A DNA stretch of 62,164 nt from Clostridia bacterium (GCA_017961365.1 JAGCXI010000068.1:1-62164); one strand, 5' to 3'; positions 3,729 to 62,130 are shown, counted from the first letter of the stretch. Notes: a model not told the origin generated them from the sequence alone. Program-made: numbers and translations.

Positions 3729-3734
3729 TTCATC

Positions 3735-3761
3735 AGGCTCGCCGTAAGGCGAGTCTTTTTC
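3735..3761 (+). terminator. Terminator after the stand-alone tRNA-fMet
   Basis: AGGCTCGCC-GTAA-GGCGAGTCT followed by TTTTT. Confidence 0.75.
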
Positions 3762-3995
3762 TATGTAAAACGGCAGGGGTTGAACGAGAGCGTCAAGAAA
3801 TCGACAGTCGACCTCTGTCGATTTTAGCGGCTGATCGAGGCAATGCGAAAAGCACTGAGCGCGCAAAAACGATATCGATACGTAGCGCGTGGCGTTTCTT
3901 CGCCTTGCAAGGCGTGATTTGGGGGCATTTCTTTTTGCGGAAAAAGCGGTTGTATGTTATAATAATATTATCAGGTTACGCAAGAGGAGGCGCGC

Positions 3996-4514
3996 ATGGC
4001 GAATTCTATGGACGGTTGGGTCGTTTATTTTGATATGGACGGGGTGCTTGCCGATTTCGACAGGGGCGTCGTGGAGCTTTGTCACCTTCCTTCTCAAGTC
4101 CAAGACTCGGTTTCCGCCGAAGAGGAAGAGACGATGTGGGGGCGCATCCGCGCTTTGGATCGCTTTTATTATAAGCTTGAGCCCATCCGCGGCTCGGTGG
4201 AGCTTTTCTTGAAAACATACGGAAAACTCGGGAGAAATTGTCAGATACTCACCGGGATTCCGAAGCCCAAGCGCGGCGTCCTTACCGCCGGAGAGGACAA
4301 GCGGGACTGGGCATATAAGTATCTCGGAAAGGACGTCATCGTCAATATCGTGTATAAGGAAGAGAAGCCGAACTTCTGCCTTCATTCGAAATGTGTCTTG
4401 ATCGATGATTTTGCGGCGAACATTCGTCAATGGGAGGCAACGGGCGGGATCGGCATATTATTCGAGAGCGCGGAATCTGCGACGAAAAGGCTGAAAGAGC
4501 TGGGCGTTTTGTGA
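3996..4514 (+). CDS. 5-prime(3-prime)-deoxyribonucleotidase-like HAD-superfamily phosphatase
   Basis: AGAGGAGG RBS. N-terminal VYFDMDGVLADF (HAD motif I, DxDGV). Size 172 aa is typical of the NT5C family. Confidence 0.65.
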   Translation: MANSMDGWVVYFDMDGVLADFDRGVVELCHLPSQVQDSVSAEEEETMWGRIRALDRFYYKLEPIRGSVELFLKTYGKLGRNCQILTGIPKPKRGVLTAGEDKRDWAYKYLGKDVIVNIVYKEEKPNFCLHSKCVLIDDFAANIRQWEATGGIGILFESAESATKRLKELGVL

Positions 4515-4608
4515 GGGACGAAAATCCATCTTTCGGGGCAGGGGAGCGCGGCGACTCTCGCTGAGGAAGCGGAAAAGCAGACTTTTCTTATAAAACGCAA
4601 AAAAAACA

Positions 4609-4637
4609 TTGACAAACGAACGCCCGCTTGATAGAAT
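4609..4637 (+). promoter_or_regulatory. Sigma-70-type promoter of the tRNA fMet-Met-Glu cluster
   Basis: TTGACA (4609-4614), 17-nt spacer, TAGAAT (4632-4637). Confidence 0.7.
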
Positions 4638-4652
4638 AAATAAGCATTTCGT

Positions 4653-4730
<78 letters not shown>

Positions 4731-4736
4731 TTTTGT

Positions 4737-4813
4737 GGCGGCGTAGCTTAGTTGGTTAGAGCGGCCGGTTCATACCCGGCAGGTCGTTGGTTCGAATCTG
4801 ACCGCCGCTACCA
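4737..4813 (+). tRNA. Elongator tRNA-Met (CAT)
   Basis: GGCGGCG acceptor, anticodon loop TTCATAC, ...CGCCGCTACCA 3-prime end. Resembles Firmicutes elongator Met rather than the lysidine Ile2 tRNA. Confidence 0.8.
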
Positions 4814-4819
4814 TATAAT

Positions 4820-4894
4820 GGCCCCTTGGTCAAGCGGTTAAGACATCGCCCTTTCACGGCGGTTACATGGGTTCGAATCCCGTAGGGGTCACCA
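4820..4894 (+). tRNA. tRNA-Glu (TTC)
   Basis: GGCCCCTTGGTCAAGCGGTTAAGACA...CTTTCAC...GGTTCGAATCCCGTAGGGGTCACCA. Close to Bacillus-type tRNA-Glu. Confidence 0.9.
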
Positions 4895-5067
4895 GAGGCG
4901 AAGACGGTTTGTGTGATAAGCACAGACCGTTTTTCTTCATGTTCGCTTGAAAGGGATTCGAATAGGGAGCCGCGAGGAACGAGCGCTTTGCCCTGCAAAG
5001 CGAAAAGGCTATGATGCCTTTTCGGCGGGTAGGCCCGCACAGGCGGGGAATCCCGTAGGGGTCACCA
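4886..5067 (+). repeat. Repeat unit A: begins with the tRNA-Glu 3-prime end and ends with an exact 20-bp second copy of that end (5048-5067 = 4875-4894)
   Basis: Direct comparison with 9509-9688 shows the same order of segments with scattered substitutions. GAATCCCGTAGGGGTCACCA occurs twice. Confidence 0.85.
4903..4936 (+). terminator. Terminator of the tRNA cluster (lies inside repeat unit A)
   Basis: GACGGTTTGTG-TGATAAG-CACAGACCGT followed by TTTTT. Confidence 0.7.
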
Positions 5068-5144
5068 TTCGGGATTTTGACGCGCCCATAAAGCGAGTCA
5101 AAATCCGTTTTGTATTCACTCGGAATTTTGGTGTTTGAAATTCT

Positions 5145-5558
5145 TTATTCTTGCTCGGGCGAAAGATTTCTAACTGTTTTCTCCGCAAAAGCGCGTGCGT
5201 CAGGCTCCTTATCCTTTACGCGGAGCATCTGCGCGTAAAAATACTCGTCATCTACGGGGATACCCTTCCCTTGGAAGATTTTTTTCAGACCTTTAACCGT
5301 CCGATGCGACCAACACGCCGTGGTAAAAAGTACAACCTTCCCGATTGACTCCTTGGTCAAGGCTTCCGCATAGGCTCTCAGTTCGGGCGCCATCACGTTA
5401 GCATAGGGCGCGCCGCCCAAAAACAGGACGTCGCAACTGCCCTGCGGCGCTTTTTCATCCAAAAGGGAAACGGCGGTCACGCCCGCCCCTTCCGCTATTG
5501 CGCGCGCTATCCTTTCGGTCCTGCCGAACTTTGAAAAATATCTGACTTTGATTTCCAT
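5145..5558 (-). CDS. Flavodoxin-like protein
   Basis: 137 aa. MEIKVRYFSKFGRTERIARAIAEG... has flavodoxin-fold N-terminal topology. Last gene of the minus-strand redox operon. Confidence 0.6.
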   Translation of the reverse strand: MEIKVRYFSKFGRTERIARAIAEGAGVTAVSLLDEKAPQGSCDVLFLGGAPYANVMAPELRAYAEALTKESIGKVVLFTTACWSHRTVKGLKKIFQGKGIPVDDEYFYAQMLRVKDKEPDARAFAEKTVRNLSPEQE

Positions 5559-5585
5559 ACGATTTCCTCCTTTTTGACATCTGTT

Positions 5586-6398
5586 TTACGACAAAGCGTA
5601 AGACGCAACGTAAAAAACGTCTTCCGGGACGGCAAGAGCGGGATCTTCTTGCAGGAAAATCACGGACAAGCCTTCTTCCTCCGCTCCAAGCGCAAAATGG
5701 CAGAGAGCTATGCCCATATCGATCCGCTGGATGTCCCAGCCGTCCGCAGCGACAAACCTTTTGTCGCTCTTTTGATAAAAATGGACCCTGTCCCCTTGTA
5801 CGACGATGCGCCACGGCTGTCTGTTCACCGCAGAGGGCGCAAGGCGCACCATTTCCAAGGGCAAGCGTAGCTTACCCGCCTTTTTCGGCGAGAGGGGAGT
5901 GTTGAAATCGCCGTCAAAGCAGATTTCCTTAAACTCCTTGCGGGTGTTAGCTTTGATGCCCTTACGCATCATCAATTCACGGAAGGACATCTTTTTTGCG
6001 GGGTAGCCAAGCGGGCTTACGCATGGCAAAACCTCGTCCGCGGCGACCGCCATCGCGTTTTCAAATGCGGAGCGGTTCATCGTGCCTGCTATCCAGGTGG
6101 TGCCCACTCCCATTTCCTCGGCAAAAAGCACCGCCTTTTCAAAGGAATACCCAAAGGCTTCCGCCGCGTGCCGGACGCGTTTTGCCTTCCCTGCAATCCA
6201 CAGGTTTGTCCCCACAATCACGGGGGAACGCAATCCATCCCTTTCCGCGTCGAGAAGCTTCCATTCGATGGGGATGCCGTACGGGTTTGCCGCACTCTCG
6301 GCAAACTCCAAAATCCTGTCCGCTTGCGCCAAGGGAAGCGCCTTGCCGTCAAAGGTTCTGACGCTGCGTCTTTTGCGAATGATATCCGATTTTTTCAT
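5586..6398 (-). CDS. Nitroreductase family protein
   Basis: MKKSDIIRKRRSVRTFDGKALP (the classic nitroreductase N-terminal RRSxRxF motif). 270 aa. Confidence 0.75.
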   Translation of the reverse strand: MKKSDIIRKRRSVRTFDGKALPLAQADRILEFAESAANPYGIPIEWKLLDAERDGLRSPVIVGTNLWIAGKAKRVRHAAEAFGYSFEKAVLFAEEMGVGTTWIAGTMNRSAFENAMAVAADEVLPCVSPLGYPAKKMSFRELMMRKGIKANTRKEFKEICFDGDFNTPLSPKKAGKLRLPLEMVRLAPSAVNRQPWRIVVQGDRVHFYQKSDKRFVAADGWDIQRIDMGIALCHFALGAEEEGLSVIFLQEDPALAVPEDVFYVASYALS

Positions 6399-6429
6399 AG
6401 AAATAACTCCTTAAAATTTTTGCAAAGGG

Positions 6430-7602
6430 TTACCCCTCCGCGCGATTGCCGCCTCGCGGGTCGGAGGCTTTCTCCTCCGCTATACGGCGCATTATTTCCT
6501 CCACCTGCGCTTTTTTTTCAAACAGGACGCACCCACCTGCGTGATCCTCCTCCAAAAGACGTCCGTCGCGTAACGCCGCAAACAGCCCGGAGTTAATCGC
6601 CGCTTCGAGGGAAGTGTCCTTTACGTTTATGTCGGAGTAAGCCGAAAAGGGGCACGGCTCGGCGCCGCCGTGCGAATTGATGTGGAAAAACCCACGTCCT
6701 GCGGCAAGGCACCCGCCCGAACTTTTTTCATCCCCGGGGAAGGAGATAAACATCATCTCCTGCTTTGTTTTGCGCAAGCGATCAAGTTCCTTTTGCATAA
6801 ACGCCCTGTCGGCGTCGTCCGGCGCCAACTTTTTGCCCTCCTCCGTCACGGGCACGAATTCGATGTAAAAAACAGCCTTGCACCCGCTCTTTTCAAGCGA
6901 ATTCAAAAACTCGTCCGATACAGACTGCTTGAGGTTCTCCTTGGTCACCGTGACCGAAACGCCGTAAATCAGCCCGCGGGAATGCAACTTATCCATATTG
7001 TCCACAAGCTTTTCGTACACCCCCGCGCCGCGCCGCGCGTCGGTCTCCGCCTTGCCCCCCTCGATGCTCATCACGGGCACAAGGTTGCGACAGCGGTCAA
7101 AAAGGTCAAAGTCCTTTTCATCCATAAAGGTCCCGTTTGTAAAGATGGGGAACAGAATGCTTTGCAATGACCCCGCCGCTACCATCACTCCTCTGCGGAG
7201 CATGGGTTCGCCGCCTGCCAAAAGGATGAAACTGACGCCGAGAGACTGCGCTTCCTTGAAGATTTTGAGCCATTCCTCGTCGGTAAGTTGTGCCACAGGC
7301 TTGCAATCAACCGTGGCGTGGTTTGAACGCGAGTAACACCCCGCGCAATGCAGGTTGCAAGAAGACGTTATGCTTGCTATCAAAAAGGGCGGCACGTCGA
7401 GCCCTTCCTTTTTCTTCTTGCGACGAAGACGCGTTGCCTTCCTGCTTGCCAAGGCAAATTTTGCCATAAAAGCGCTCTCGCGCGGGTCGCGGAAGGTGGC
7501 GCGGATCGCCTCTTTGACGATTTCCTCCACCCCCTTTGCCATATATTCCTGTACGTCAAAATTTTTGCTCACGGCTACCCCTCCTTTATCGATCGTCGCC
7601 AT
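6430..7602 (-). CDS. Radical SAM protein (function unknown)
   Basis: CNLHCAGCY (CxxxCxxC) cluster motif and a C-terminal Cys-rich segment GGCLAAGRGFFHINSHGGAEPCPF. The ATG at 7602 is preceded by GAGGAG. The ORF-track start at 7617 is TTG. Confidence 0.75.
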   Translation of the reverse strand: MATIDKGGVAVSKNFDVQEYMAKGVEEIVKEAIRATFRDPRESAFMAKFALASRKATRLRRKKKKEGLDVPPFLIASITSSCNLHCAGCYSRSNHATVDCKPVAQLTDEEWLKIFKEAQSLGVSFILLAGGEPMLRRGVMVAAGSLQSILFPIFTNGTFMDEKDFDLFDRCRNLVPVMSIEGGKAETDARRGAGVYEKLVDNMDKLHSRGLIYGVSVTVTKENLKQSVSDEFLNSLEKSGCKAVFYIEFVPVTEEGKKLAPDDADRAFMQKELDRLRKTKQEMMFISFPGDEKSSGGCLAAGRGFFHINSHGGAEPCPFSAYSDINVKDTSLEAAINSGLFAALRDGRLLEEDHAGGCVLFEKKAQVEEIMRRIAEEKASDPRGGNRAEG

Positions 7603-40680: not shown

Positions 40681-42264
40681 TCACCCCTTGCTTAGGCAAA
40701 AATAAAAAATGTCGGAAAAATCCGACATTTTTCTGGTTGGTGGGCAGTAACTCTTTTGTTTAGAACTCTGGGAACGCAAAGAAGAGGGGGTTGTTTCCGC
40801 TATTTCGGACTCAACTTTTTGAAGTTGTTCTTTAGTCTTTTTCAGAGTGGGGAAATCGTCCGTAAAGTTATAGGTTATTACTATTCTATCATCATATAAT
40901 AGCACCTCTCGCACGAAGGTATTTATCAGCTGTTTTTTGAGATCAATATTGGTCGGATCGGTAAAGAACTCTGCCCTCAAAAAGTCCTCGATTTGCTCGA
41001 CGGTCAAATAGGCAAAATTACGGTTTTTCTCTTTCTCAATATCCACGTCAAGGATGGCGATTTCGGTTTCAAGTTCTTTCAGCCTGCTTTTCGTTGCCTC
41101 GGTGATGATCCCTTGTTCAATGGCTTTAATCATATTGGTTTGAGCACGTATCGCATCCCTTTGTTTTTGCTCTAACGCTCGGAGCGCCGTATGATCCTGC
41201 ATACCGTTTTTGTGCATTTTGAAAACCTGTGTGGCGATCTCGTGAATGTTCGCATTTTCGCAAAGAAGCCTCGCCGTCGTATGGACGACGATATCCTCAA
41301 TCACTTGTTTCTTGATTGCGCGCGTCGGACACTTTTTCTTCCGCCCTCTACCGGGGAGACAATCATAATAATAGTGGGTAGCGCCCGTCTTGGAACGTCC
41401 GCTGACACCGGACATCCTTCGTTTGCAGTTACCGCAAAACAGTTTCCCCGAAAGGATGAAGTCGCAAATCTCTTTCTTGCGGCAGGGAGCAAGCTTGTTT
41501 TCCTCGTTTATTGCGCTAACGGCTCTCCATAATTCCTCGGAGATGATGCGAGGGAAGATCTTGTCATAAACGATGCCTTGATGTTCGACGATTCCCGTAT
41601 AACGCACATCGTGTAAAAGGTCGTAAAGGTATTTCAAGTTAAGCGGTCTGCCGTTCTTCCTTCGATACCCCCGCTTCTCAAAATTAGCCAAAATGGCAGG
41701 GACGGTGTATCCCTTTGCATACTCCGTGAAGGCTTCAATGACGATATTGCTTTCGTATGGATTGATGACGCACCTTTTATCTACGACGTCGTATCCGAAA
41801 ACCGCTTTGCCCCCTCCGGTCTGACCTTTGCTCCAGCTCTCCCTCAGCCCGCGATTGACCTTTTGTTTCAGCTCCGCCGAATAGTATTGGTTCATACCCT
41901 CCAGCAAGCTTTCGAGGATGATACCCTCGGGGCTGTCGGGAATATTCTCCATCGCGGATACGAGTTTGACGCCGTTTTCTCTCAAGGTGTGTTTATGGAT
42001 AGTCGTTTCGTACTTGTCTCGAGAAAAACGGTCTAACTTGTAGACCAAAACGATCTCCCATTGACCTTTGGCACTATCTCGAATCATCCTCTGGAAATCC
42101 GGTCTCATATCGTTCGTGCCCGACATCGCGCGGTCGATATAGGTATCCACGATCAAAATATCGTTGCTTTTGGCGTAATCCTTACAAACGCGGAGTTGTC
42201 CTTCGATCGACTGCTCCGTTTGGCTATCGCAGGAATACCTTGCATAAATCACTGCTTTCTTCAT
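40681..42264 (-). CDS. Large serine recombinase (integrase)
   Basis: MKKAVIYARYSCDSQ...SIEGQ (resolvase catalytic Ser domain), recombinase domain, Cys4 zinc ribbon CGNCKRRM...YYYDC, and a coiled-coil C-terminal region. 527 aa. Confidence 0.88.
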   Translation of the reverse strand: MKKAVIYARYSCDSQTEQSIEGQLRVCKDYAKSNDILIVDTYIDRAMSGTNDMRPDFQRMIRDSAKGQWEIVLVYKLDRFSRDKYETTIHKHTLRENGVKLVSAMENIPDSPEGIILESLLEGMNQYYSAELKQKVNRGLRESWSKGQTGGGKAVFGYDVVDKRCVINPYESNIVIEAFTEYAKGYTVPAILANFEKRGYRRKNGRPLNLKYLYDLLHDVRYTGIVEHQGIVYDKIFPRIISEELWRAVSAINEENKLAPCRKKEICDFILSGKLFCGNCKRRMSGVSGRSKTGATHYYYDCLPGRGRKKKCPTRAIKKQVIEDIVVHTTARLLCENANIHEIATQVFKMHKNGMQDHTALRALEQKQRDAIRAQTNMIKAIEQGIITEATKSRLKELETEIAILDVDIEKEKNRNFAYLTVEQIEDFLRAEFFTDPTNIDLKKQLINTFVREVLLYDDRIVITYNFTDDFPTLKKTKEQLQKVESEIAETTPSSLRSQSSKQKSYCPPTRKMSDFSDIFYFCLSKG

Positions 42265-50313: not shown

Positions 50314-51213
50314 ATGCCATTTGAAGAAACGAAAGTATATTACGACGGTAGCCATTACGTGGCGATTCCCCACACCGAACGAGGTTCCCGAAAGCGTAAA
50401 AAGCTAAAGGAAGAGCCGATCGTGGTGGAGAATAGAACAACTACGCGGAAGGAGCTGTTCAATGATTTGTACGCCTCGTCGGAAAGCAAGACCAAACGAA
50501 GCAAGAAGAAGGAAATTACCGATCAGATGAAAGACTTTTTCCCCAATAAAAAGGACGCGGATATGTTCGTGGAAGAGAACTTCCAAAGGAAACGTCGCAA
50601 TCTTATTTGTCGAAGAACAAGGCTCTTTCGGAAGGCAGCGATGCAGGAGTTCAATTACTTTTGTACCTTCACCTATGATCCTCAAAAGATGGACGAAGAT
50701 ACTTTTCGAACAAAGCTACAATATGTGTTTAGACACAATAGCACGCGCAAAGGCTGGAAGTATATAGGGGTATGGGAGCGATCCCCGGAGAAGCACAGAC
50801 TTCACTTTCACGGGATCTTTTATATCCCCGACGGTACAATGCTCGGTGAATTTGAAGAAAAGAGCGATTACAGCATCGGAGACGCCAAACGGAGAAAGAC
50901 GAAGCAGAACACTTACTTCGCGGAACGCTTCGGGCGAAACGTCTTTGATCGCTTGGAACACACCACTGATGCAAATCGATCTTTGACGTACATTATAAAG
51001 TACCTCGAAAAAACGGAAGAACGGATCGTGTATTCCAAGGGAATGAAGCAATATTTCATATCGGATGTGATGGAGGAAGACGTCGCTTGTCCGTGCGGCA
51101 TCGGCGACGCAAAGCTTCTTTTATTCGATGACTTCATCTGCTACGATCAAGGGGAAATCAAGGGACAAGTATCGCCGAAAGTCATAGCGGAAATGCGGAA
51201 AACAGATTCGTGA
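50314..51213 (+). CDS. HUH-superfamily rolling-circle replication initiator (two-tyrosine, superfamily I type)
   Basis: AGGAGGAATAAGGT RBS. Motif 1 FCTFTY (116-121), motif 2 LHFHGIFY (H164-F-H166), motif 3 YIIKYLEK (Y226, Y230). Confidence 0.75.
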   Translation: MPFEETKVYYDGSHYVAIPHTERGSRKRKKLKEEPIVVENRTTTRKELFNDLYASSESKTKRSKKKEITDQMKDFFPNKKDADMFVEENFQRKRRNLICRRTRLFRKAAMQEFNYFCTFTYDPQKMDEDTFRTKLQYVFRHNSTRKGWKYIGVWERSPEKHRLHFHGIFYIPDGTMLGEFEEKSDYSIGDAKRRKTKQNTYFAERFGRNVFDRLEHTTDANRSLTYIIKYLEKTEERIVYSKGMKQYFISDVMEEDVACPCGIGDAKLLLFDDFICYDQGEIKGQVSPKVIAEMRKTDS

Positions 51214-51349: not shown

Positions 51350-51469
51350 CGTGTGCTTGTTGGCGGATCGAAGCGCGGCGACAGCCGCGCGAAGAGACGC
51401 CACTTGATATATACAAGCACACGTCCGAGTGCCAATTGTATTATCAAGCTTGTTTTATACAAGCACACG
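51350..51469. repeat. ori-like repeat cluster downstream of rep: ACAAGCACAC(G) in three copies (inverted at 51350-51360; direct ATACAAGCACACG at 51411-51423 and 51457-51469) plus the GC hairpin GCGCGGC-GACA-GCCGCGC (51373-51390)
   Basis: Read from the sequence. Confidence 0.6.
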
Positions 51470-51691
51470 CATTACTGCCAATCGAGGTTTTTTAGGTATT
51501 TTCGGTCAAAAACACAGTTGCTCTTTCGCTCGATTTTTCAGTAAAAATAGCTGTGGCTATTTGGAGCAGAGAGAGCGGCTTGATAAATATTTGCTAAGGT
51601 CTATTATTATGCTTTTTTGCGGTTTGTTCGACACCAGACACATACTTTGCATTGAACGACACTAACTTGTATTTTAAATAACTCTTGGTTC

Positions 51692-52939
51692 TTAATTTAT
51701 CGTTTGATTACTATATAGCAGTTTAATACTCTCTTTTAGTGAAGGCTCCCGATGAATTCCAAGAGCCAATAAGAATTCGACATATAGCTTTTTTTTCATG
51801 AATTCATATTCGTCATCACTTATAATATCGTTATAAACCACCGGATTTGTTATAATGAGATTTCGATCCAATCTAACATCATAATTGTTATCGTTCACAA
51901 ACACATTTTGGCAGTTTATAAGAGACAAGCAAACAAAGATTTTTCTATTGCTAAAAATGTTTTTAAAAACACTGGTATAGCTTTCTAACAAGCCTCCCAA
52001 TTGATTCCATAATGGGCACCATTCAAAATAATCTTTGCCGGAACTAGCATGACGTAATAAATCTCCTTGATTTAAGGGGCAAAGACATTCTACAATTCCG
52101 TTATATGTTATTAAACCTTCATAATTTCTGTAATCGCTTTCAGGTGAGGCGATGAATCTTAGCCCGTCCACACTGGGCAAAGATGTATGTCCACAATTAA
52201 AATGATTAAAGATATCACTAAATTTAATATGCTTAATAATACTTAACGCAAAAGGATTAATATTATAACTTGAATCAATAAACGTTTCAGGAATTAAATG
52301 AATAAGTAAAAATTTTTTACCATTATCCCAATTTATATTTGTTTTATCTTCGCAAAATTTTATCCGATCTAACCGAAAATTATAGATTTCTTTTTCCAAG
52401 ATAATTGATTGATTAAATCTATTTTTAAGTTCATTATAAGTCATAGAAAATTTCCTGTTCCCGTTTCTTGTGTATGCATAATATCTACATTGGTTTTCTA
52501 AAAATAAATATGGTGCAAAGTTATCGCTCTGAATGAACAAAACAACAACATATTTACCATTTTCAAGTTTGATAAAATGAAAAATAATAAAAGGAGTTTT
52601 GGGAAATATAGACAAAAGGTTGTTACGTCTTTCTTGTTCAAATGAATCCGTATTGTTGTTAGGAATATTAATCCCAACTATGTTCGTAGCTATACCATTT
52701 TTTTCAGAAATTCCAAAAATTAAATATCCACCTTCGGAATTAGCAAAAGAACAAACGTCGTTTTTAAATTCAACTATTTTTTCATTTCGTTTATTATCGT
52801 TTTTATCAAATTCTAGAAAAGCAAAATTTTCCTTGTAGTCTATATATTCGTTCTCTCTATAATCTTGGTTATCTAAGAGAAGTTTTAATTCATCCTCATT
52901 TATTTCTGTAAATGATTTCCCATTAATTGTTGGTAGCAT
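51692..52939 (-). CDS. AlbA_2 (Schlafen-like, divergent AAA_4) DNA-binding-domain protein with an unknown ~300-aa C-terminal domain
   Basis: ATG at 52939. ...ENEYIDYKENF........IVEFKNDVCSFANSEGGYLIFGISEKNG matches the AlbA_2 core (E..fK...........i....aFANt.GG.l.iGv). Confidence 0.65.
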   Translation of the reverse strand: MLPTINGKSFTEINEDELKLLLDNQDYRENEYIDYKENFAFLEFDKNDNKRNEKIVEFKNDVCSFANSEGGYLIFGISEKNGIATNIVGINIPNNNTDSFEQERRNNLLSIFPKTPFIIFHFIKLENGKYVVVLFIQSDNFAPYLFLENQCRYYAYTRNGNRKFSMTYNELKNRFNQSIILEKEIYNFRLDRIKFCEDKTNINWDNGKKFLLIHLIPETFIDSSYNINPFALSIIKHIKFSDIFNHFNCGHTSLPSVDGLRFIASPESDYRNYEGLITYNGIVECLCPLNQGDLLRHASSGKDYFEWCPLWNQLGGLLESYTSVFKNIFSNRKIFVCLSLINCQNVFVNDNNYDVRLDRNLIITNPVVYNDIISDDEYEFMKKKLYVEFLLALGIHREPSLKESIKLLYSNQTIN

Positions 52940-52943
52940 AGTT

Positions 52944-53309
52944 TTACTCCATAGTTTTGATTTTCGACTCGATATAAGATTGTTCTTCCACAGTAAGATA
53001 GTCACTCAAATCGACGCCCAATTTAACAAGCCCTTTACAGCCAAGCGCACATAAAAAATGACGTGCCGATAAGTATTTATCCTTCATTGTCTTTGGTTTG
53101 TGGGTGTTTATTCTATTCCATATTTTCATTTCTTCCTGATGCTTATTCGCTATCTCGACAATATGCTTGTTCATTTCGTGGAACCTTTGATCTAGGTATA
53201 AAAAATCCAGTTTATTCAGATCACGTTGAATATCATTTATATCATGACGGTCCTTAAACACATCAAAAAGTTTACGAAAATTATCCATTTCGTTAGGTTT
53301 CAGTTCCAT
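52944..53309 (-). CDS. Hypothetical 121-aa helical protein
   Basis: AAAGGAG RBS. The stop lies 4 nt before the AlbA_2 gene ATG. Confidence 0.55.
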   Translation of the reverse strand: MELKPNEMDNFRKLFDVFKDRHDINDIQRDLNKLDFLYLDQRFHEMNKHIVEIANKHQEEMKIWNRINTHKPKTMKDKYLSARHFLCALGCKGLVKLGVDLSDYLTVEEQSYIESKIKTME

Positions 53310-53421: not shown

Positions 53422-54168
53422 TCATATTAAATCAGATCTCAAAATACTATCATATGAAATCGATATTTTATCTATCTCATATAAACGTGAATTTATTGCC
53501 TTACAGTCTTCCGAGTAAAAGAAGACTAACACATCTCCATCAGGATGCAAAGAACTTTGAAATACAACACCATCGAACCCCATATTTATAAACTGTCCTG
53601 CCAAGTACTGAGTAAACCAATAGTTATGCCCCGAATAATGTGGCCGTGAAAATTCTTCAGCTATTCTTGAAATAAGATAGCTTAATACTTCATTATCAAT
53701 TAATTTTGCTGATACATTTTTTCGTAAATCGGCAAAATTTAAATCCCGTGTTGTTATAAATTCTGCTATGGAAATTCTTTCATGTTTTATGGGGCGTAGT
53801 TCATATATAACTGTTGTTGGATTGTTACAAGTATAAAGAAATGACTGTCCTTTACAATTAAGCCTCCCTTCTGCTGCAAGTTCGTGAGGTGGCGCGCCAG
53901 ACTTATCTGCATCATATCCTTGAAAAACCTCCTCATCTGAATCAATAAATTTATCAAAGTCCTCGCTATTAGAAACTACTTCATCCAAATTAAAAATACG
54001 TCCTCTAAAAAAGGATAAGCCCTCTTTTATTCGACAAGAAAATAGTCCTCTATTTTTTTCTAATATAGATAAAAAAGGGTTTCTCGTATCAAATCTATTA
54101 AATTTTACAATCGTTTCTTTCCAATGATAAAAATCAAAACGAACTTTATTTCTTAACTGTTTATCCAT
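53422..54168 (-). CDS. RES-domain protein with an N-terminal extension
   Basis: ATG at 54168 after TAAGGTG. GRLNCKGQSFLYTCNNPTTVIYELRP (R...E) and FDGVVFQSSLHPDGDVLVFF (S) match the RES (Arg-Glu-Ser) domain pattern. Confidence 0.65.
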   Translation of the reverse strand: MDKQLRNKVRFDFYHWKETIVKFNRFDTRNPFLSILEKNRGLFSCRIKEGLSFFRGRIFNLDEVVSNSEDFDKFIDSDEEVFQGYDADKSGAPPHELAAEGRLNCKGQSFLYTCNNPTTVIYELRPIKHERISIAEFITTRDLNFADLRKNVSAKLIDNEVLSYLISRIAEEFSRPHYSGHNYWFTQYLAGQFINMGFDGVVFQSSLHPDGDVLVFFYSEDCKAINSRLYEIDKISISYDSILRSDLI

Positions 54169-54209
54169 TGTGCACCTTATTGTTTTTCTGATACTTTGCA
54201 AAAGCAATT

Positions 54210-57200
54210 TTACTCCATAGGCTTAATCATCGACTCAATGAAAGCGATTTCGGATTCGTCGAGATTGTATTTAGCATATAAATCGGCATCCGCCCAAGCT
54301 CGTGAAAAGTCTTGTACGGAGACGAAACGATATGTTTTTGCCGTGCCGTGCTGACTGATTTTAGCGAGACTCAACAAGTATCTTGCGAACTTGGTTTTCA
54401 AATAATTGCAAAGATTGGTTGCTTTGTTTTCATCAAGATTCAAATCGGCACCAACCACAAGAAACGTTTCCGTACAAACAGTGTTCGGCGAGCCGACAAA
54501 TGCATTTTGATTATCATCATTTAACTCGGTACCGATATTATTAGATTCGGGAATGTACACCTTCCATAGTTTCACCCATTCTTTATGGGTGGAAATTTCA
54601 GAATAGTCTACATAGCCTTCTTTCCCGGAACGCCCATAGCATTTTACTGGATTCTTTAATCCAATGGGTTCCGCTCTAAATTTCGAATCATTTATAAAGA
54701 ATGTTCTAAAGCCAAACGCTTTAGCTGCCGATATGTGTCTCTCAAAGGTGTCCAAAGTTTGTTCCTGCGGCAAAACCTTGTCAAGTATGGAGATTGCTCG
54801 ACTATCGCGAATAAAAATATCAAGATCCCTTGTTTTCAAGGAACGTTGTGAAATATGCGTTTTCCCTTCGCCTTCGTGTGTAACAATCGTCACGCCGACT
54901 TGAGAATTATCAAAGGACTTATTTCTTGCAAAATAGCAAATACCGCCTCTATTGTTTGTATCGGGGAAAACTTCTTCGGGATGCAGAAAATCGTGTAGCT
55001 CCTTTATGTGTTTATCTCTCAACATTTCATCTCTAAATTCATCAAGCCCCTTGCCGCCGGCATACCAACGAGTAGGCATAATAATAGAGAGATATTCGGG
55101 TTGAAGTTTCTTTCCTACTTTAACAAAAGCGTTATAGATAGGTTTTGCGCTTTTCTGCGCGCCGCCGTCGTCTTCTTGATAAGGCGGATTTCCTACTACT
55201 GCATCGAATTGAATCATATCTGCTTCTCCTTGTGTCGGATCGTCTGTCAGTTTTATCTCATCAAAGGGTTTGCTCTGCGCTATTATCTTGGCTATCTTTT
55301 CGTAGTCGATTTCGTCATCCGTTTTCACGTCAAGCAAATCTGTTGCAATGAATCGCTTTGCGATATTGGCACCGTTCAAACCGAGCATTTCATACAGCTT
55401 TCGCGTCAGTTCATAACAAATGGATGACTTCGGAATGGTGTAAATCATATCGGCAACAACCTGTCTGTCAATGCCAAGTGATAGCAATCTCTTTTGCAAT
55501 GCTAATGCGTATTCGCCCGACGTACCGGCAATATCCAATATCCTGCCGCGCCTTTCGGCAACTTCTTTCAGGAAGTCATCGGAGAAGAGATTGACCATAT
55601 CGTCGCAAATATTCGACGGCGTAATAACGATGGCGTCGCCAAGCTTGCCGAACTTCTTGACGGCGACCGCCGCTCTGTCCTCGGGCGACATATCCGACGC
55701 TTGCGACAAATCGTTTAGGTCTTGGATTTTGTAATCCAAATCGCTCAACACAAACTTGTTGGATTTTTGGTAAAGTAGGACAAGTATCTCCTTTTTCAGT
55801 CCAAGGTTATAGGCAATGCGCTTGTTGTCTTCCGTCTCCATCTTCTCGATAATGTCGGAAACGGAAATAACTCTGTCTTTTGTGATGTATGCAAAGAGCA
55901 AGATTCGGACATAAAAACCCTGTATCTTTTTCTTGTTGCTGATCTCTTGCTTCCGCGTATCGTCAGGTGAAGAAGGCGCATTATCGTGCGGAGCCGTATC
56001 CTCCGTTTCCTCCGCATCGGGATCGGGCGTGCCGCCGTCCGGCGTATTTAAGTCATTGCCTTCGTTCCCGTCCGTGCCATCATGTGCGGGCGTGGATAAA
56101 CCGGCTTTTGATCCAATCTCGTTTTCCTGTTCGATTGCCGCACGAATGGTCGCGTCCTCCAAAATACTCAAATCGACGGGCGTTTCAAGCGCTTCGTCCT
56201 TAATGCCTTTGTCTTTTTTATAGTTGCTTACCACTTGAAGGATATCCGCCGCCTTTACTTCAACGATCTTATCTGTATTGATGGTAACGATGGGAGAAAT
56301 GCGCAACTCTTCGATTATGCGCTTTTCCAGCTCACGATTGCCGCCGGTGTCGACGTTTGCGTTGTAGATTTTAGACTTTGTTTCTTGCATGACAAACATT
56401 CTGTTCGGCATAAAGTCCACAAGCAACGTCTGCGGCTTCATATTGTACTTGATTGTATCACCGTTGTCGTCAACGTAAGTTTTTATATATTGATTTTGCA
56501 AACGGAAAATTGCTTGGTCGTATTCCTGCGGAGAAGCGGTATCTTTTAGATACAACATCGTATCCCACTCCGGTACAGTGCTACCCGTAAGCATACGATT
56601 TACGGTCAACGTGATCGTCTTTTGCCCGTTCTTTTCCGCTACACGAACGGCGGCTTTTATCGCGTTCGGAGTCTTGTAAGCATTTGGATTATCCACGCCG
56701 GAAATGTTGATGATTTTGTATCCATTCAGATTGCGGAACCTATCCGTATTGGCCGCGATCAAGGTTTCAAGAGCGTCGCAAGAAGCGCAATAAGGCAAAA
56801 CAATAACGATATGGCGACACATCTTGCCGTCTTTGATCTTATCGTAATTGAGGAAACCCAACAATTGGTCGTCTGCTTTGCTTCCGTCTATGACTTCCAA
56901 CAAATCAAGTATCTCTCGCTCGTATTTGAATTTCTTATGCAAACCGCTTTCGTTCTTTTTGATTGACATCGGCTTGAAGAGCGCAGAAAACGCATAAGTC
57001 ATTCCCGACTTTTTCAATTCTTCCAAACGCTTGCGGGAAGATTCGTTCGGATTGAAGGCAAATCGTACCATCTGCGGGAATCCGAAATAAGGATTATCCC
57101 ATTCTTTGTAGTCATCGTCCAAGACGTGTTCTTTATCCCACGCTTCCTGATCGTGGACGATGTCGATGAATTGATAGAAGGCGATGATGTCTTCTTTTTT

Positions 57201-58253
57201 GAACTCGCTTCCCATCAAGATACGATACGGTGTACCCGACAGGTGAATGGTGATGTTGGTATGAAGCGTTTTTATCGTTTCGTCCGCTTCTTCCACATCA
57301 ATGAAATCATCTGCGTCTTTCTTGTTTTTGACATCTTTTTCGTATTTCTCGCCTTTAAGCACTGCACCGTACTTATCGGCACGCGCGCCGAAATGTGTTT
57401 CGTCCACAAGCAAAAGATCGATGTCTTGCCCAAATACTTCTTGGTGCTTATCCTTAATGGTATCGCCTTGCAGATCTTGCAAGGTTAAAAAGACGGCAAC
57501 CTTCTTTCCGTTCGATAGCGTTTCCGTGATAATTTTGTTGTTGCGGTTGAGTTCGTCGCTTGTTAAAAAGACATAATCCGCAAATTTGACATGGCTTTCG
57601 ACCGTCTTCTTCCATTCCATCTTTACGTCCGCTTTTGCCGAAACGATAACGACCAATTTGGCGTCCATCTCCGCGGCGCAACACATCGATGTAAACGATT
57701 TCCCGAAACGCATAACGGCATACATCAAAAGATTCTTGCGACCGCTATCTATTGCTTGTCTGAACGCTTTGATCGTTTTCTCTTGATTGGGGCGAGGAGA
57801 AAAGGTTTCGGTGCGTGCAAATGTGAAGGTTTCGGCAAGGCGATTTTCGGCATTGTAGAATTGATACTTCTCGGCATTATCCGAGAAATCTTTTTCAATA
57901 TCCGCGATTGCCGCTTGTATGTCTTCGGAATTGGCATCCTTAAAAAACTCTCGGGAGTAATAAACGCCCGCAGGGATGTCCGTTGGCGTTAATCTTGCTC
58001 TTTGCTTGTCTGTCTCCAAAAATTGATGGACAGCATAATCACGGAAATAAACATCGTCGTTGATTCTCGCCGTACCTTCGTATTGTTTTTCAAGCTCGGG
58101 AAAATGCACGCGCCATTCGTCCAACCGCGTTGAAACGGGTCGATATGTATCGCCGACTTTCAAATAATTGGGAATCGTGTTGGTCGTAAAGGCATAAATG
58201 CGAGGCTCGACTCTTCCGATAATGATATTGTCCAAACAGCTTTTATCTATCAT
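54210..58253 (-). CDS. 1347-aa fusion: GIY-YIG/T5orf172-like N-domain, SF2 (DEAH-type) helicase, acidic linker, gamma-class N6-adenine DNA methyltransferase (Eco57I-type) and TaqI_C-like specificity region
   Basis: IYAFTTNTIPNYLKVGDTYRPVSTRLDEW; AVMRFGKSFTS (motif I); LLLVDETH (motif II); QAIFRLQN (motif VI-like); ITPSNICDDMV, ILDIAGTSGEYA, VVGNPPYQ (residues 1020-1026). Confidence 0.8.
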   Translation of the reverse strand: MIDKSCLDNIIIGRVEPRIYAFTTNTIPNYLKVGDTYRPVSTRLDEWRVHFPELEKQYEGTARINDDVYFRDYAVHQFLETDKQRARLTPTDIPAGVYYSREFFKDANSEDIQAAIADIEKDFSDNAEKYQFYNAENRLAETFTFARTETFSPRPNQEKTIKAFRQAIDSGRKNLLMYAVMRFGKSFTSMCCAAEMDAKLVVIVSAKADVKMEWKKTVESHVKFADYVFLTSDELNRNNKIITETLSNGKKVAVFLTLQDLQGDTIKDKHQEVFGQDIDLLLVDETHFGARADKYGAVLKGEKYEKDVKNKKDADDFIDVEEADETIKTLHTNITIHLSGTPYRILMGSEFKKEDIIAFYQFIDIVHDQEAWDKEHVLDDDYKEWDNPYFGFPQMVRFAFNPNESSRKRLEELKKSGMTYAFSALFKPMSIKKNESGLHKKFKYEREILDLLEVIDGSKADDQLLGFLNYDKIKDGKMCRHIVIVLPYCASCDALETLIAANTDRFRNLNGYKIINISGVDNPNAYKTPNAIKAAVRVAEKNGQKTITLTVNRMLTGSTVPEWDTMLYLKDTASPQEYDQAIFRLQNQYIKTYVDDNGDTIKYNMKPQTLLVDFMPNRMFVMQETKSKIYNANVDTGGNRELEKRIIEELRISPIVTINTDKIVEVKAADILQVVSNYKKDKGIKDEALETPVDLSILEDATIRAAIEQENEIGSKAGLSTPAHDGTDGNEGNDLNTPDGGTPDPDAEETEDTAPHDNAPSSPDDTRKQEISNKKKIQGFYVRILLFAYITKDRVISVSDIIEKMETEDNKRIAYNLGLKKEILVLLYQKSNKFVLSDLDYKIQDLNDLSQASDMSPEDRAAVAVKKFGKLGDAIVITPSNICDDMVNLFSDDFLKEVAERRGRILDIAGTSGEYALALQKRLLSLGIDRQVVADMIYTIPKSSICYELTRKLYEMLGLNGANIAKRFIATDLLDVKTDDEIDYEKIAKIIAQSKPFDEIKLTDDPTQGEADMIQFDAVVGNPPYQEDDGGAQKSAKPIYNAFVKVGKKLQPEYLSIIMPTRWYAGGKGLDEFRDEMLRDKHIKELHDFLHPEEVFPDTNNRGGICYFARNKSFDNSQVGVTIVTHEGEGKTHISQRSLKTRDLDIFIRDSRAISILDKVLPQEQTLDTFERHISAAKAFGFRTFFINDSKFRAEPIGLKNPVKCYGRSGKEGYVDYSEISTHKEWVKLWKVYIPESNNIGTELNDDNQNAFVGSPNTVCTETFLVVGADLNLDENKATNLCNYLKTKFARYLLSLAKISQHGTAKTYRFVSVQDFSRAWADADLYAKYNLDESEIAFIESMIKPME

Positions 58254-58262
58254 TTTAGCCCC

Positions 58263-59234
58263 TCATTTCCTCAGTAAGTTGACGAATTTGATCTTCTTTC
58301 CCGTTTCCCAGTCCTTTACGTAGCAATATATCCCGTTGTGCTTTTTGTGATTGTTTTTCTTGCAGCCATCACACATTTCTTCGTGGACTTCTTCTCCAAA
58401 AAAAGTGTAGTCCACGACTTTTTCATTATGGCAGCTATTCGGAATGACAAACTTTAATCCATCCATTTGCCAAATATTCCAAGAGAGGATCTCGGCGACC
58501 TCGCGCAAGTATTCTTTGATAGGATAGACGCCGAATTTGTTTTCATAATGATCGGTGAAGGTGAACAGTAAGTTTTCACGGGCAAGCAGCACGTTATCTC
58601 CTTGCCAATCATAGCCGTATATACTCTTAAAAGCTTCTTTTGCCCATTCGTACCATTCTTGCTCGCCGTCGATGTTTTCCGAAACGACGCGCAGTTTGCG
58701 ATCCAAAAGTCCGATACGGTCTTTAACCTCGATAACTTCACCTGTCACGGTATCATAACGGCTTGCAAGGTAAGGGGCCTCGCCGCAAGTTATTTCAAGA
58801 CGTTGTGCTTTGACATAGTCTTGCCAAGTTTTCCCCTCCGGGAACACTATCTTTTCGGAATTGGTCGTCCACCCTTTTTCTGTTTCGGTGTTGAAGACGC
58901 CCTCGCATCCAAACCAAGCGTTATCTACGAGATTGTTTTGTTGATTGCATATCCAAGACGGGGTGAAAACTTCCGCTTTATCGCGGACACGGGAAAGCTG
59001 CTCCTTCTTGCTCTTTTCGGTTCTTGGGCGGATCAAATTACCGCTTTTTCCGGTGATGGAATAAATCGTAATATAGTCGCTTGCGCTGTATCCGTTGCCG
59101 TTTGAAATATAGTCATCCGTTGCCCATATCAGATTCTTCCCGGACGAATTGTCTTTCAGCAGGATTGACAAAAGTTGAGCGTCACGCTCCAATATTCTAT
59201 TTTCTTTGACGTCAACCCGTATTTCTTTTGCCAT
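58263..59234 (-). CDS. Methyltransferase-fold-like protein lacking the (N/D)PP(Y/F) catalytic motif, with a C-terminal Cys/His cluster
   Basis: AEVFTPSWICNQQNNLVD (motif X-like) and LEITCGEAPYL (motif I-like). No PP dipeptide anywhere. C-terminal CHNEK...CDGCKKNNHKKHNGIYC. 9-nt gap to the fusion gene. Confidence 0.6.
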   Translation of the reverse strand: MAKEIRVDVKENRILERDAQLLSILLKDNSSGKNLIWATDDYISNGNGYSASDYITIYSITGKSGNLIRPRTEKSKKEQLSRVRDKAEVFTPSWICNQQNNLVDNAWFGCEGVFNTETEKGWTTNSEKIVFPEGKTWQDYVKAQRLEITCGEAPYLASRYDTVTGEVIEVKDRIGLLDRKLRVVSENIDGEQEWYEWAKEAFKSIYGYDWQGDNVLLARENLLFTFTDHYENKFGVYPIKEYLREVAEILSWNIWQMDGLKFVIPNSCHNEKVVDYTFFGEEVHEEMCDGCKKNNHKKHNGIYCYVKDWETGKKIKFVNLLRK

Positions 59235-59369
59235 TATTATCCTTTACATTGCTTTGCGCAATTCGTTTTTTGTCTATTTTATATAATAACATATCTACCT
59301 CTTCTTTCTCAATACCTAAGTTGAACTTCTTTATCTTGACTATTGAGGCGACTTGTGCCATAATTAGAG

Positions 59370-60128: not shown

Positions 60129-61037
60129 CTACAGAAGAAGTTTATTTCGATAGTTGTATTTCGATAGTACTTTTTTCTTTCTGTTGATTGTGACTTCGGT
60201 ATATATCTCGGTGGTGGAGACGCTTGCGTGTCCCATAATTTCTTGCACGGAACGAAGATCGGCTCCGTTTGCAAGCAAGTTTGTCGCAAAGGTATGGCGA
60301 AGGAAGTGCGGCGTTGCTTTTGTGTTAATTCCCGTTAGATCCCGATATTTGCTAAAGATGTTTTCTGCACCGTACACGCTGAGCGGAGAGTGTTCCCGAT
60401 TGACGAAGAGAAAGCCGCAGTTAATACCGCGCTCTTTGCGCAGTCGTAGCCAATCTTTTAGGTTGTTCCATGTATCTTGGCAGGATATGTAGAGAAGACG
60501 TTGTTTGCGTCCTTTTCCATGGATTAGAATCGTGTGTTCCGAGTGTACGACGTCATCGAGAGTCAGTGCCACAGCCTCTCCCACACGTATGCCGGTGCTG
60601 AGCATAAGGTCGATTAAGCAGAGGTCGCGGGTGGTTTGAAAAACTGCGAACGGGGTGACAGCTTCGGTCTTGCGGGTTTTCAGACAGTTGATCAAAGCGC
60701 GCACCTCTTTTACTTCAAGGGTTTTGGGTAGGCGCCGTTCTTTTCTGAAGGGGAAAGATATCTCTCGCATCGGGTTCTCCGTCAAGTGCTTTGTCTTGCA
60801 AAGGTAATCCAAAAATTGCTTGATCGAGATCAATTTTCGCTTGATAGAGGTGTCTTTGAGTCCTTGCGCCTTCAGCCCGTCTATATAATTGAAAATCTCA
60901 GATAAGGTCACCGCGCCCACATCCTCGTTCTCCGCAAGAAATCCCTTCAAATCCGATCGATACGCCTTAATTGTCTTTTCCGACAGATTCTTCGTCGTGC
61001 GTATTTTTTGTATAAATTCATCCAAACACATTCCCAT
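60129..61037 (-). CDS. Tyrosine recombinase (XerC/XerD-like phage integrase family)
   Basis: N-terminal SAM-like domain (...KTIKAYRSDLKGF...), catalytic ...TGIRVGEA...LIHGKGRKQR...HFLRHTFATNLL..GADLRSVQEIMGHASVSTTEIYT. The ATG at 61031 has better RBS spacing than the one at 61037. Confidence 0.85.
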   Translation of the reverse strand: MGMCLDEFIQKIRTTKNLSEKTIKAYRSDLKGFLAENEDVGAVTLSEIFNYIDGLKAQGLKDTSIKRKLISIKQFLDYLCKTKHLTENPMREISFPFRKERRLPKTLEVKEVRALINCLKTRKTEAVTPFAVFQTTRDLCLIDLMLSTGIRVGEAVALTLDDVVHSEHTILIHGKGRKQRLLYISCQDTWNNLKDWLRLRKERGINCGFLFVNREHSPLSVYGAENIFSKYRDLTGINTKATPHFLRHTFATNLLANGADLRSVQEIMGHASVSTTEIYTEVTINRKKKVLSKYNYRNKLLL

Positions 61038-61125: not shown

Positions 61126-62130
61126 ATGAGAAACTATATACCAGTATTCACGGATGAAGAAACAGATAATGTTTTAAAAAAATTGAAGCCATCAAACAGC
61201 AAAGCTTGTAACGATAATTTATTATGGGGTTCTGCAACCTCACAAGCTTATTCCGGAAAGTATCATGGCTATAGTTTTAAAAGATCCAACTTATATAAGG
61301 TAGCTTTTTCTTCGGCAGAATTCGATCATTGTAATTTTACGGGATCGATTCTAAAAGAAGTAATTTTTGAGTCAACTTGTAATTTTTCTTCAGTTAATTT
61401 TCAGCGATCTATTCTTGATGGTTGTTCATTTAATAGTGAAGAAACAATGCATGCTTTAAATTTTTCCGCATGCATTTTAGACAATGTTGATTTTAGCAAT
61501 AATACCATACGCGGCAGTTATTTTAATAATGCGAAAATTAATAATTGCAGATTTAACAATACTGTAATTCGATCTACGTCTTTTGATAATTGTATTATAA
61601 AGAATTCTTCATTTTTAAATTGTAATATGAAAAATTTAAACTTGGAGTTTTCAACATTTATTAATGTAGATTTAGAAAATGCGCAGATTTCTTTTTATCA
61701 ACTACCGTATATAATAGGGATATTTAATGAGCCTAATAGGTTAAAAAATCTACTCATAGGATGTGGTGAAGGAAAAACTATAAATTTTTCAGATTATGTG
61801 CACAATATACAAGACTCCATCGTTTATTTTACCAATAAAAATCAATTCCTTCCCCTTGCTAATTTATACTATTTAAAAGGTGACTACAACATTGCGAAGA
61901 ACTGCATTTTGTCTGGGGTGGAAAATTCACTGCTGAGAAACGATTATACTTTAATAAAGTATTTGATTAAATTGGCGATAATACTTAAATTGTTAGACTA
62001 TTCAGAAATTAATCATCTATTAAATAAGGTAGATTTGCATTTAAATAAAATAAAGGATGATGAGAACTATACATATTACTTGTTACAATCATTTGAAATG
62101 CAAATTGAACATTGGAAACATCTGTTGTAA
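61126..62130 (+). CDS. Pentapeptide-repeat protein with a helical C-terminal domain
   Basis: Runs of A(D/N)LxF-like pentapeptides (...AEFDHCNFTGSILKEVIFESTCNFSSVNFQRSILDGCSFNS...NVDFSNNTIRGSYFNNAKINNCRFNNTVIRSTSFDNCIIKNSSFLNCNMKNLNLEFSTFINVDLENAQI). Very AT-rich. Confidence 0.7.
   Translation: MRNYIPVFTDEETDNVLKKLKPSNSKACNDNLLWGSATSQAYSGKYHGYSFKRSNLYKVAFSSAEFDHCNFTGSILKEVIFESTCNFSSVNFQRSILDGCSFNSEETMHALNFSACILDNVDFSNNTIRGSYFNNAKINNCRFNNTVIRSTSFDNCIIKNSSFLNCNMKNLNLEFSTFINVDLENAQISFYQLPYIIGIFNEPNRLKNLLIGCGEGKTINFSDYVHNIQDSIVYFTNKNQFLPLANLYYLKGDYNIAKNCILSGVENSLLRNDYTLIKYLIKLAIILKLLDYSEINHLLNKVDLHLNKIKDDENYTYYLLQSFEMQIEHWKHLL

Follow-up and report, generated by a model that had tools for sequence, protein, structure and literature searches.

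A predicted two-gene, Type ISP-like restriction-modification system with a free methylase N-lobe in a Clostridia bacterium

A stretch of 62,164 nucleotides (nt) from a Clostridia bacterium (GCA_017961365.1, JAGCXI010000068.1:1-62164), here called the window, carries two adjacent genes on its minus strand. The small gene, called A, lies at 58263-59234(-) and encodes 323 amino acids (aa); the large gene, at 54210-58253(-), encodes 1347 aa. The large protein consists, in this order, of a head, a superfamily 2 (SF2) ATPase, an acidic linker, a coupler, a gamma-class N6-adenine methylase and a target recognition domain (TRD). The pair is highly likely to be a heteromeric, ATP-dependent restriction-modification (RM) system of a Type ISP-like kind.

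The small protein is predicted to be half a methylase: an intact N-lobe that would bind S-adenosylmethionine (SAM). The large protein has an N-lobe of its own, followed by the catalytic lobe and the TRD. Catalytic lobe and TRD form a cassette that is exchanged independently, while protein A, the motor and the N-lobe of the large protein co-evolve. The explanation preferred here, to which we assign a probability of roughly 60%, is a two-subunit enzyme on the Type ISP plan, with A as an obligatory part of the holoenzyme and with exchange of the cassette. The family is common, catalogued and unstudied. Two SAM-binding lobes that share one mobile catalytic-lobe/TRD cassette are a feature that was not found described.

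The pair was singled out by a model that read the sequence alone, referred to below as the original prediction. The open reading frames (ORFs), the 9-nt gap between the stop of gene A and the ATG of the large gene, and all the motifs it named are present where it put them.

Two layouts and an exchangeable cassette

It is convenient to name three modules. A is the free N-lobe, B is the N-lobe within the large protein, and C is the catalytic lobe with the TRD. In the window, gene A is followed by head-helicase-coupler-B-C. Relatives also come in a reciprocal layout, where A-C is one protein and head-helicase-B the other. Both layouts hold two N-lobes, A and B, and a single C, and the breakpoint is always just before FDxVxGNPPY.

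Four relatives (P0242, P0243, P0245, P0319) are complete A-C methylases. The next gene is a ResIII helicase partner, often with overlapping stop and start. The partners in loci L082, L083 and L085, which were inspected gene by gene, measure 1116-1124 aa and consist of a T5orf172-type head, helicase, coupler and B. They end about 15 residues past motif III and lack NPPY; the partner in L088 is cut off by the end of its contig. Solitary A-C genes occur as well, and are intact. A script assigned 62 of 80 viral contigs to the layout of the window and 8 to the reciprocal one; these were not individually inspected, and the script over-called another class ("A, separate C"), for example in L163.

The two genes are closely linked. 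In 52 of 54 metagenomic loci that were found via head and helicase, and that have enough upstream sequence, A lies directly upstream on the same strand. The spacer in these 52 loci runs from about -19 to +30 nt, with a 4-nt overlap in L002. Conversely, nearly every genomic locus found via A, given enough downstream sequence, has an adjacent large gene. Two motor lineages occur beside A: type A, with a helicase 44-83% identical to that of the window, and type B, at about 25% and with the same plan.

In the window the spacer (58254..58262(-)) reads GGGGCTAAA, between the TGA of gene A and the ATG of the large gene. It offers GAGGGG as a Shine-Dalgarno-like sequence, and translational coupling of the two genes appears likely. 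A is hardly ever absent and its translation is probably coupled to that of the large gene, for which reasons it is taken to be a subunit of the enzyme.

The modules do not evolve at the same pace. A mirror-tree analysis of 36 dereplicated type A loci shows A, head, helicase, coupler and B in mutual agreement (r 0.82-0.92). The catalytic lobe reaches no more than r 0.22-0.26 with these five; with the C-terminal tail it reaches r 0.65, and with the TRD rho 0.76. Over 29 complete type A loci, identity to the window has a median of 66% for the helicase, 63% for the head, 62% for A, 47% for the coupler, 46% for B, 38% for the catalytic lobe and 30% for the TRD. Together these numbers split the locus into two parts: a constant framework (A, motor and B) and an exchangeable cassette (catalytic lobe and TRD).

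Protein A of L002 is 80% identical to that of the window, and it is paired with a type B motor. It follows that A can move between motor lineages.

An apparent result, that A is far more conserved than its partner, was discarded. It came from loci picked by their similarity to A; in loci picked by the motor, the median identity of A is 49%, versus 63% for the head.

The small and the large protein

Gene A (motifs X, I, II and III) is assigned from alignment, an AlphaFold2 (AF2) model and conservation as the predicted SAM-binding N-lobe of a gamma methylase of the Eco57I lineage. EVFTPSWICN is found at residue 88 and LEITCGEAPYL at 146. An exhaustive search found 1820 relatives. About one third of the representative ones are 600-710 aa long with NPPY at around residue 300-380; the short ones lack NPPY. 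Protein A aligns end to end with the N-terminal half of the methylases of about 650 aa, its cysteine cluster included. These longer relatives run straight from the A-like half into FDxVxGNPPYQ, and protein A stops exactly there. In two of them (P0258, P0319) the N-terminal halves are about 50% identical to protein A, and the C-terminal halves are 54% identical to residues 1007-1347 of the large protein.

Structure prediction of the 323-aa protein, which the original prediction had proposed, gives a confident AF2 model (predicted local distance difference test, pLDDT, 95.2; predicted template modelling score 0.93). It has strands at LEIT (motif I), IYGYD (motif II) and IWQ (motif III). Among 136 diverse sequences about 15 columns are invariant. 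Of the residues expected to contact SAM, E147 and an acid at 209 are present in 136/136 and D258 in 125/136; N253, Q256 and M257 are found in all 136. The PADLOC model MTase_II PDLC03390 matches residues 5-322, its full length, with 409.7 bits. The top ranks of a Foldseek search with the model are BrxX/PglX, MmeI, DrdV, LlaGI and LlaBIII, none of them significant.

Protein A belongs to a family spread across Clostridia, Bacteroidales, Spirochaetota, Bacilli and other groups, and identity between phyla is 58-87%. Species-representative genomes contribute at least 591 stretches with a member, viral contigs at least 482.

The original prediction had noted the absence of (N/D)PP(Y/F) from this protein. 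That absence extends to all 120 close relatives, even with the wider pattern (N/D/S)PP(Y/F/W). It had also doubted that the protein is a methylase, and indeed without motif IV, a catalytic lobe and a TRD it cannot act as one alone. Its term "catalytically degenerate" does not fit, since protein A is a conserved, confidently folded N-lobe that ends where the catalytic lobe would start. There is no support for its suggestion of a nuclease or specificity partner; in its evolution A follows the motor and not the TRD. The C-terminal Cys/His cluster it pointed to is there, and Cys 268, 288, 291 and 304 are conserved among close relatives. It is not part of the core, however: all four cysteines occur in only 49 of the 136 diverse relatives, which makes the cluster an optional insert. 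Sequence and model together thus point to an intact SAM-binding N-lobe, or half-methylase.

The motor of the large protein is an SF2 helicase-like ATPase at residues 150-700 (56154..57806(-)). Pfam ResIII matches residues 151-301 with an E-value of 7.8e-12. The ATPase motifs are GKS at 184, DETH at 284, SGTP at 339 and QAIFRLQN (QxxFR) at 580, and they are invariant across type A and type B relatives. Next comes the linker, residues 716-770 (55944..56108(-)), poorly conserved and, as had been claimed, acidic, with 27% Asp/Glu. The coupler-like region at residues 771-865 (55659..55943(-)) sits at the junction of motor and methylase. It is named by this position and by analogy with Type ISP enzymes, and is conserved as part of the motor block.

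N-lobe B covers residues 866-1012 (55218..55658(-)) and carries motifs X, I, II and III. Motif X is the TP at 878, in TPSNI, and motif I is LDIAGTSGEY at 906 (ILDIAGTSGEYA at 905). T878, P879, D907 and G913 are present in 119 of 119 sequences and G910 in 118. Motif II is atypical and has no acid, and motif III is a variable Asp (D972 in only 91/119). By sequence, A and B are no more than distant relatives.

Cassette C, residues 1013-1347 (54213..55217(-)), was delimited with PADLOC and alignment. It starts with the catalytic lobe, from FDAVVGNPPYQ, with NPPY at residue 1022, and continues with a variable TRD and a conserved C-terminal tail. The PADLOC model MTase_II PDLC03375 (348 aa) matches residues 1013-1346 over the model's full length. 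Pfam Eco57I (PF07669) matches residues 971-1096 with an E-value of 2.2e-24 and 86.9 bits, against a gathering cut-off of 25.3. In the relatives L002 and P0297 this model spans B and C contiguously. Motifs X, I and IV of the methylase stand in the gamma order. With the ResIII and Eco57I matches and the motifs at these positions, the Type ISP domain order of the original prediction holds.

Its TaqI_C-type specificity region does not: Pfam TaqI_C has no match in the C-terminal 250 aa. This putative region is called a TRD here solely from its position and high variability.

The head, residues 1-135 (57849..58253(-)), is assigned to the T5orf172 type by its sequence signature and by Pfam PF10544 matches in orthologues, and is presumed to be a nuclease. 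T5orf172 belongs to the GIY-YIG superfamily. The first 50 residues, with IYAFTT...LDEW at residue 19, are among the best conserved of the large protein. The sequence fits the T5orf172 pattern with IYAF..., KVGDT, R, then H..L and REFF. Across the type A and type B motor relatives I19, Y20, K32, G34, T36, E46 and F104 are invariant, and R38, R43, H76 and E102 are found in at least 90%. The head thereby agrees with the signature IY...K(I/V)G.T...R...H...E(W/F)F, including the catalytic Tyr, Arg and Glu.

PF10544 matches 3 of 30 orthologous heads, with a best E-value of 4.2e-6. For the partner in L082 it gives an E-value of 0.0031 and 18.4 bits, under the cut-off of 20, and P0109 has a precomputed match. 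No Mrr or PD-(D/E)xK match was found in the head with Pfam. The head is therefore read, in agreement with the original prediction, as probably of T5orf172/GIY-YIG type and not as Mrr. The T5orf172 domain is the nuclease domain of Gp88 from phage ICP1 (PMC8263062).

Proposed working, rival readings and known systems

In the preferred explanation, the large subunit would present in order a T5orf172 nuclease, an SF2 translocase, the coupler, N-lobe B, the catalytic lobe with NPPY and the TRD. The small subunit A would be a stand-alone SAM-binding N-lobe, co-produced with it and obligatory in the holoenzyme. The TRD would read an asymmetric site, and the methylase, by NPPY chemistry, would set N6-methyladenine (m6A) on one strand of host DNA. 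Recognition of an unmodified site would turn on the ATPase, leading to translocation and then to cutting by the head. Domain content, gene linkage, both layouts and the way the modules evolve were observed; the activities of the enzyme, the joining of A to the large subunit and the role of A are what we infer.

Docked on the large subunit, A could do one of two things. It could act in trans, completing or replacing the SAM site with which the catalytic lobe works. For this speaks that its cofactor-contact residues are invariant, that it is the sole N-lobe in A-C proteins, and that solitary A-C genes are intact. Alternatively, A could be a second SAM site that gates methylation versus restriction, with B-C doing the chemistry. 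In favour of this, B-C is a canonical one-chain Eco57I domain, the motifs of B are invariant, and A co-evolves with the motor and not with the cassette. Direct involvement of A in binding SAM, be it for methylation or for licensing, is a tentative proposal that falls a little short of even odds.

Specificity would change when the whole cassette of catalytic lobe and TRD is swapped, by recombination at the conserved motif IV sequence. Such exchange would account for C being found behind B, as in the window, or behind A, as in the reciprocal layout. A more daring version has a single C shared by the free A and the motor-tethered B, where the lobe engaged decides between methylation and translocation with cleavage. 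The cassette starts exactly at motif IV, so recombination there could re-plug C behind either lobe and swap specificity at the same time. This version is rather unlikely.

Several observations weigh against the two-subunit explanation. B and C make up a complete, canonical Eco57I-type domain in one chain, so on paper A is not needed for methylation. A profile comparison of A with B aligned at motif X only, over 26 columns, with a probability of 87.5%. The best Foldseek match of the A model is non-significant (E-value 0.13, template modelling score about 0.3, about 200 columns aligned). The window's own head has no Pfam match. An AF2 model of the head, made with 30 orthologues, has a pLDDT of 65.6, and below 50 for the conserved residues 1-37, which is too poor to confirm a GIY-YIG fold. 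Foldseek with this model returned only noise and no meaningful match, so the assignment of the head rests on its sequence. Two loci (L089, L092) have A and C as separate genes without B, maybe through gene decay, and L236 (3428-5032) keeps a fragment of B with C and has no A. No measured activity was found for any family member, and the B. subtilis trio DnmA-YeeB-YeeC, discussed below, gives no phage protection (PMC9973331).

The large protein might, though this is doubtful, be sufficient by itself as a single-chain Type ISP-like enzyme whose methylase is B-C. A would then be a non-catalytic SAM sensor, an assembly factor or a regulator that stems from a lost companion methylase. The contiguous Eco57I match over B and C in relatives fits this, as do the invariant motifs X and I of B. 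P0297 moreover keeps B-C intact while its A is truncated at residue 244, and the variation of A follows the motor (small partial correlations link it to the coupler and the C-terminal tail), not the catalytic lobe. A pure scaffold, however, would not need the canonical cofactor-contact residues, all of which A keeps invariant. Nor does this reading sit well with A as the sole N-lobe of fused A-C chains, or with the intact solitary A-C genes.

Many deletion and split derivatives in the family (L163, L094, L236, P0297, P0402) could also make gene A look like the functionless, decaying leftover of a companion methylase whose catalytic half has gone. This is extremely improbable. Gene A is an intact ORF with 58-87% identity across phyla, it is linked in 52 of 54 loci with spacers of the coupling type, and hundreds of sequences share its end point. 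It has a confident structure model and some 15 invariant columns in 136 diverse sequences, and the orphan N-lobe is kept in the reciprocal layout too. The system might, lastly, not restrict DNA at all. It would then be a methylation or epigenetic module, or one for mobile-element addiction or anti-restriction, in which helicase and head serve another purpose. The analogous DnmA-YeeB-YeeC of B. subtilis acts as an orphan methylase without a defence function (PMC9973331), and the system is common on viral contigs and serine-recombinase elements. This too is improbable: the nuclease signature of the head and the ATPase motifs are kept across lineages only 25% identical, and the TRD cassette turns over fast, as expected of defence specificity. 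In addition the locus lies in a defence-type island, and Vibrio homologues of the trio are reported to alter phage sensitivity (PMC9973331).

The two-subunit explanation can be set beside known systems. Like the large protein, the Type ISP enzymes LlaGI and LlaBIII combine nuclease, SF2 ATPase, coupler, gamma N6-adenine methylase and TRD in one chain. One-strand modification at an asymmetric site and cleavage driven by translocation are probably shared as well (PMC4666363, PMC3553950). The head is Mrr/PD-(D/E)xK in LlaGI and LlaBIII, and of T5orf172/GIY-YIG type here. Type ISP enzymes work as one sufficient polypeptide, and they cleave when two enzymes collide after ATP-driven translocation. 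Here there is also the extra N-lobe-only partner A, seen in the 52 of 54 loci, and the catalytic lobe moves with the TRD as one cassette. A sequence search of PDB with single sequences and family profiles found nothing for either protein; phmmer and family-profile hmmsearch against all PDB chains, including 4xqk and 5ffj, gave nothing at E <= 1. Because of the other nuclease head, the lack of detectable homology and the extra subunit, the pair is not placed in the LlaGI/LlaBIII family.

The reciprocal layout resembles the mod-res genes of Type III systems (Mod and Res, for example EcoP15I), and both have a helicase-like ATPase and asymmetric sites. In Type III, Mod is a beta-class methylase and Res has a C-terminal PD-(D/E)xK nuclease. 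Here the methylase is of the gamma class, the T5orf172 nuclease-type head is N-terminal, and in the reciprocal layout the motor subunit ends in a methylase N-lobe.

With the Eco57I-type enzymes of Type IIG the pair shares the Pfam Eco57I domain, and it resembles their 'M + RM' arrangement. Those enzymes have no helicase motor and a complete companion methylase, whereas here the motor is present and the partner is without catalytic lobe and TRD. BREX PglX/BrxX, MmeI and DrdV, the top structural neighbours of the A model, if weak ones, are all complete methylases with a catalytic lobe of their own.

Morgan et al. in 2009 noted uncharacterised "large single polypeptides" in which endonuclease, helicase, methylase and TRD are united, and also MmeI-like methylases that have a helicase and a GIY-YIG protein on their flanks (PMC2731913). 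DnmA(YeeA)-YeeB-YeeC is a conserved trio of methylase, helicase and T5orf172 genes (PMC2731913, PMC9973331). Compared by domain types alone, it unites the same three activities as the window pair, and its genes form a conserved cluster on low-GC DNA gained by horizontal transfer (PMC2731913, PMC9973331). Each activity of the trio has its own protein, and an orphan N-lobe has not been described for it; the window pair fuses the three and brings in a half-methylase.

The original prediction had allowed that such an architecture may already be catalogued, with characterised members. Catalogued it is: the PADLOC search it had suggested gives full-length models for both proteins, and for the large one this is REase_MTase_IIG (PDLC03626), with 1496.4 bits over residues 6-1346. 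This model and PDLC03390 are derived from REBASE. No characterised member was found. NCBIfam has no match for either protein, and the literature yielded no description of the family or of the orphan N-lobe. Filing the large protein as "Type IIG" takes no account of its motor, and "methyltransferase" is, in its present form, an incorrect label for the small one.

Each of the two proteins has relatives by the thousand among gut anaerobes and their (pro)phages. With thousands of protein clusters, the system is one of the commoner RM-type systems there. If A is needed, annotation pipelines miscount methylases, and attempts to express the large gene without its partner, whether to match methylomes or to obtain a reagent, would fail. 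The cassette and the rule of "two N-lobes, one catalytic lobe" offer a testable model of how methylation is coupled to restriction in ATP-dependent RM enzymes, and of how their specificity changes. They also point to a natural split-methylase scaffold, with potential use in engineering. Should the shared-cassette version be true, restriction enzymes would have a novel mode of construction and evolution.

Irregular loci and the island around the pair

Many in-frame deletion or split derivatives exist in the family: L163, L094, L236, P0297, P0269 and P0402. In L163 (6009-7763) the helicase is lost, and the start of the head is joined to the end of the coupler. The large gene of L094 (2768-6825) is split into 841 and 511 aa. 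In P0297 the truncated A is fused to the intact B-C. Such forms are probably steps of decay towards orphan methylases.

Some candidates were set aside for this reason. The "Rosetta-stone" fusions P0269 and P0297 seem to have arisen by in-frame deletion and were given little weight. P0394, at one point taken for a free-standing B-C methylase, is the downstream piece of a split large gene. A third layout, with A and a separate C, is kept as tentative, since L163 is a helicase-deletion derivative and L089 and L092 are unclean. In L089 the ORFs of A and C are in frame across a single TAA stop; the spacer of L092 holds a decayed remnant of B.

L089 itself is a phage-like contig of 125 kb. Its 24 called genes stop with TAA (13) or TGA (11), never with TAG, which hints at reassignment of TAG in this phage.

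Back in the window, a putative promoter lies about 50 nt upstream of gene A, at 59283..59312(-). It was found by a consensus scan only, and consists of TTGAGA, an 18-nt spacer with TG, and TATTAT.

The pair sits in an AT-rich island among defence-type neighbours, as the original prediction had said. The GC fraction is 0.31-0.45 across 51-62 kb, versus about 0.55 in the rest of the window. The island also encodes RES-domain, Schlafen/AlbA_2, tyrosine recombinase and pentapeptide-repeat proteins.

The RES-domain gene (Pfam E-value 1.2e-9) at 53422-54207(-) begins 2 nt past the stop of the large gene, on the same strand, and its position suggests that it may be co-transcribed. No antitoxin-like partner for it was identified. 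A Schlafen/AlbA_2 gene is found near the pair at 51692-53005(-). In the unrelated locus L236 an SLFN_AlbA_2 + HATPase_c_4 gene (5043-6497) comes directly after the C-TRD remnant, and the association with the system may thus recur.

The XerC-like tyrosine recombinase (60129-61037(-)) shares the strand of the pair and is found 0.9 kb upstream of it. In L087 a tyrosine recombinase is directly upstream of a solitary A-C methylase. Phase variation through the adjacent recombinase could show as silent TRD copies or inverted repeats. None were found within the window, so there is no evidence of phase variation here.

The pentapeptide-repeat protein (61126-62130(+)) matches the Hailong effector HalA weakly, at 36 bits where the cut-off is 250; this is probably mere repeat similarity.

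A large serine recombinase (40681-42264(-)) adjoins the housekeeping gene for chorismate synthase. Further along, a Rep gene of the ORF2/G2P family (50314-51213(+)) is followed by two 34-nt direct repeats (51403-51482), possibly an origin. The recombinase beside chorismate synthase, together with the Rep gene, suggests that the island is the cargo end of an integrated mobile element. Serine recombinases also flank the related systems in L082, L083 and L085.

A 121-aa ORF at 52944-53309(-) ends in EEQSYIESKIKTME, which resembles the C-terminus of the large protein, ESEIAFIESMIKPME. The ends of both genes are spanned by a 37-nt direct repeat with 78% identity (52942-52978 and 54208-54244). ORF and repeat may be a relic of an earlier cassette end, left after recombination.

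Finally, the high-GC host part of the window holds a tRNA cluster at 3651-4894(+), with three tRNA-Met and one tRNA-Glu.

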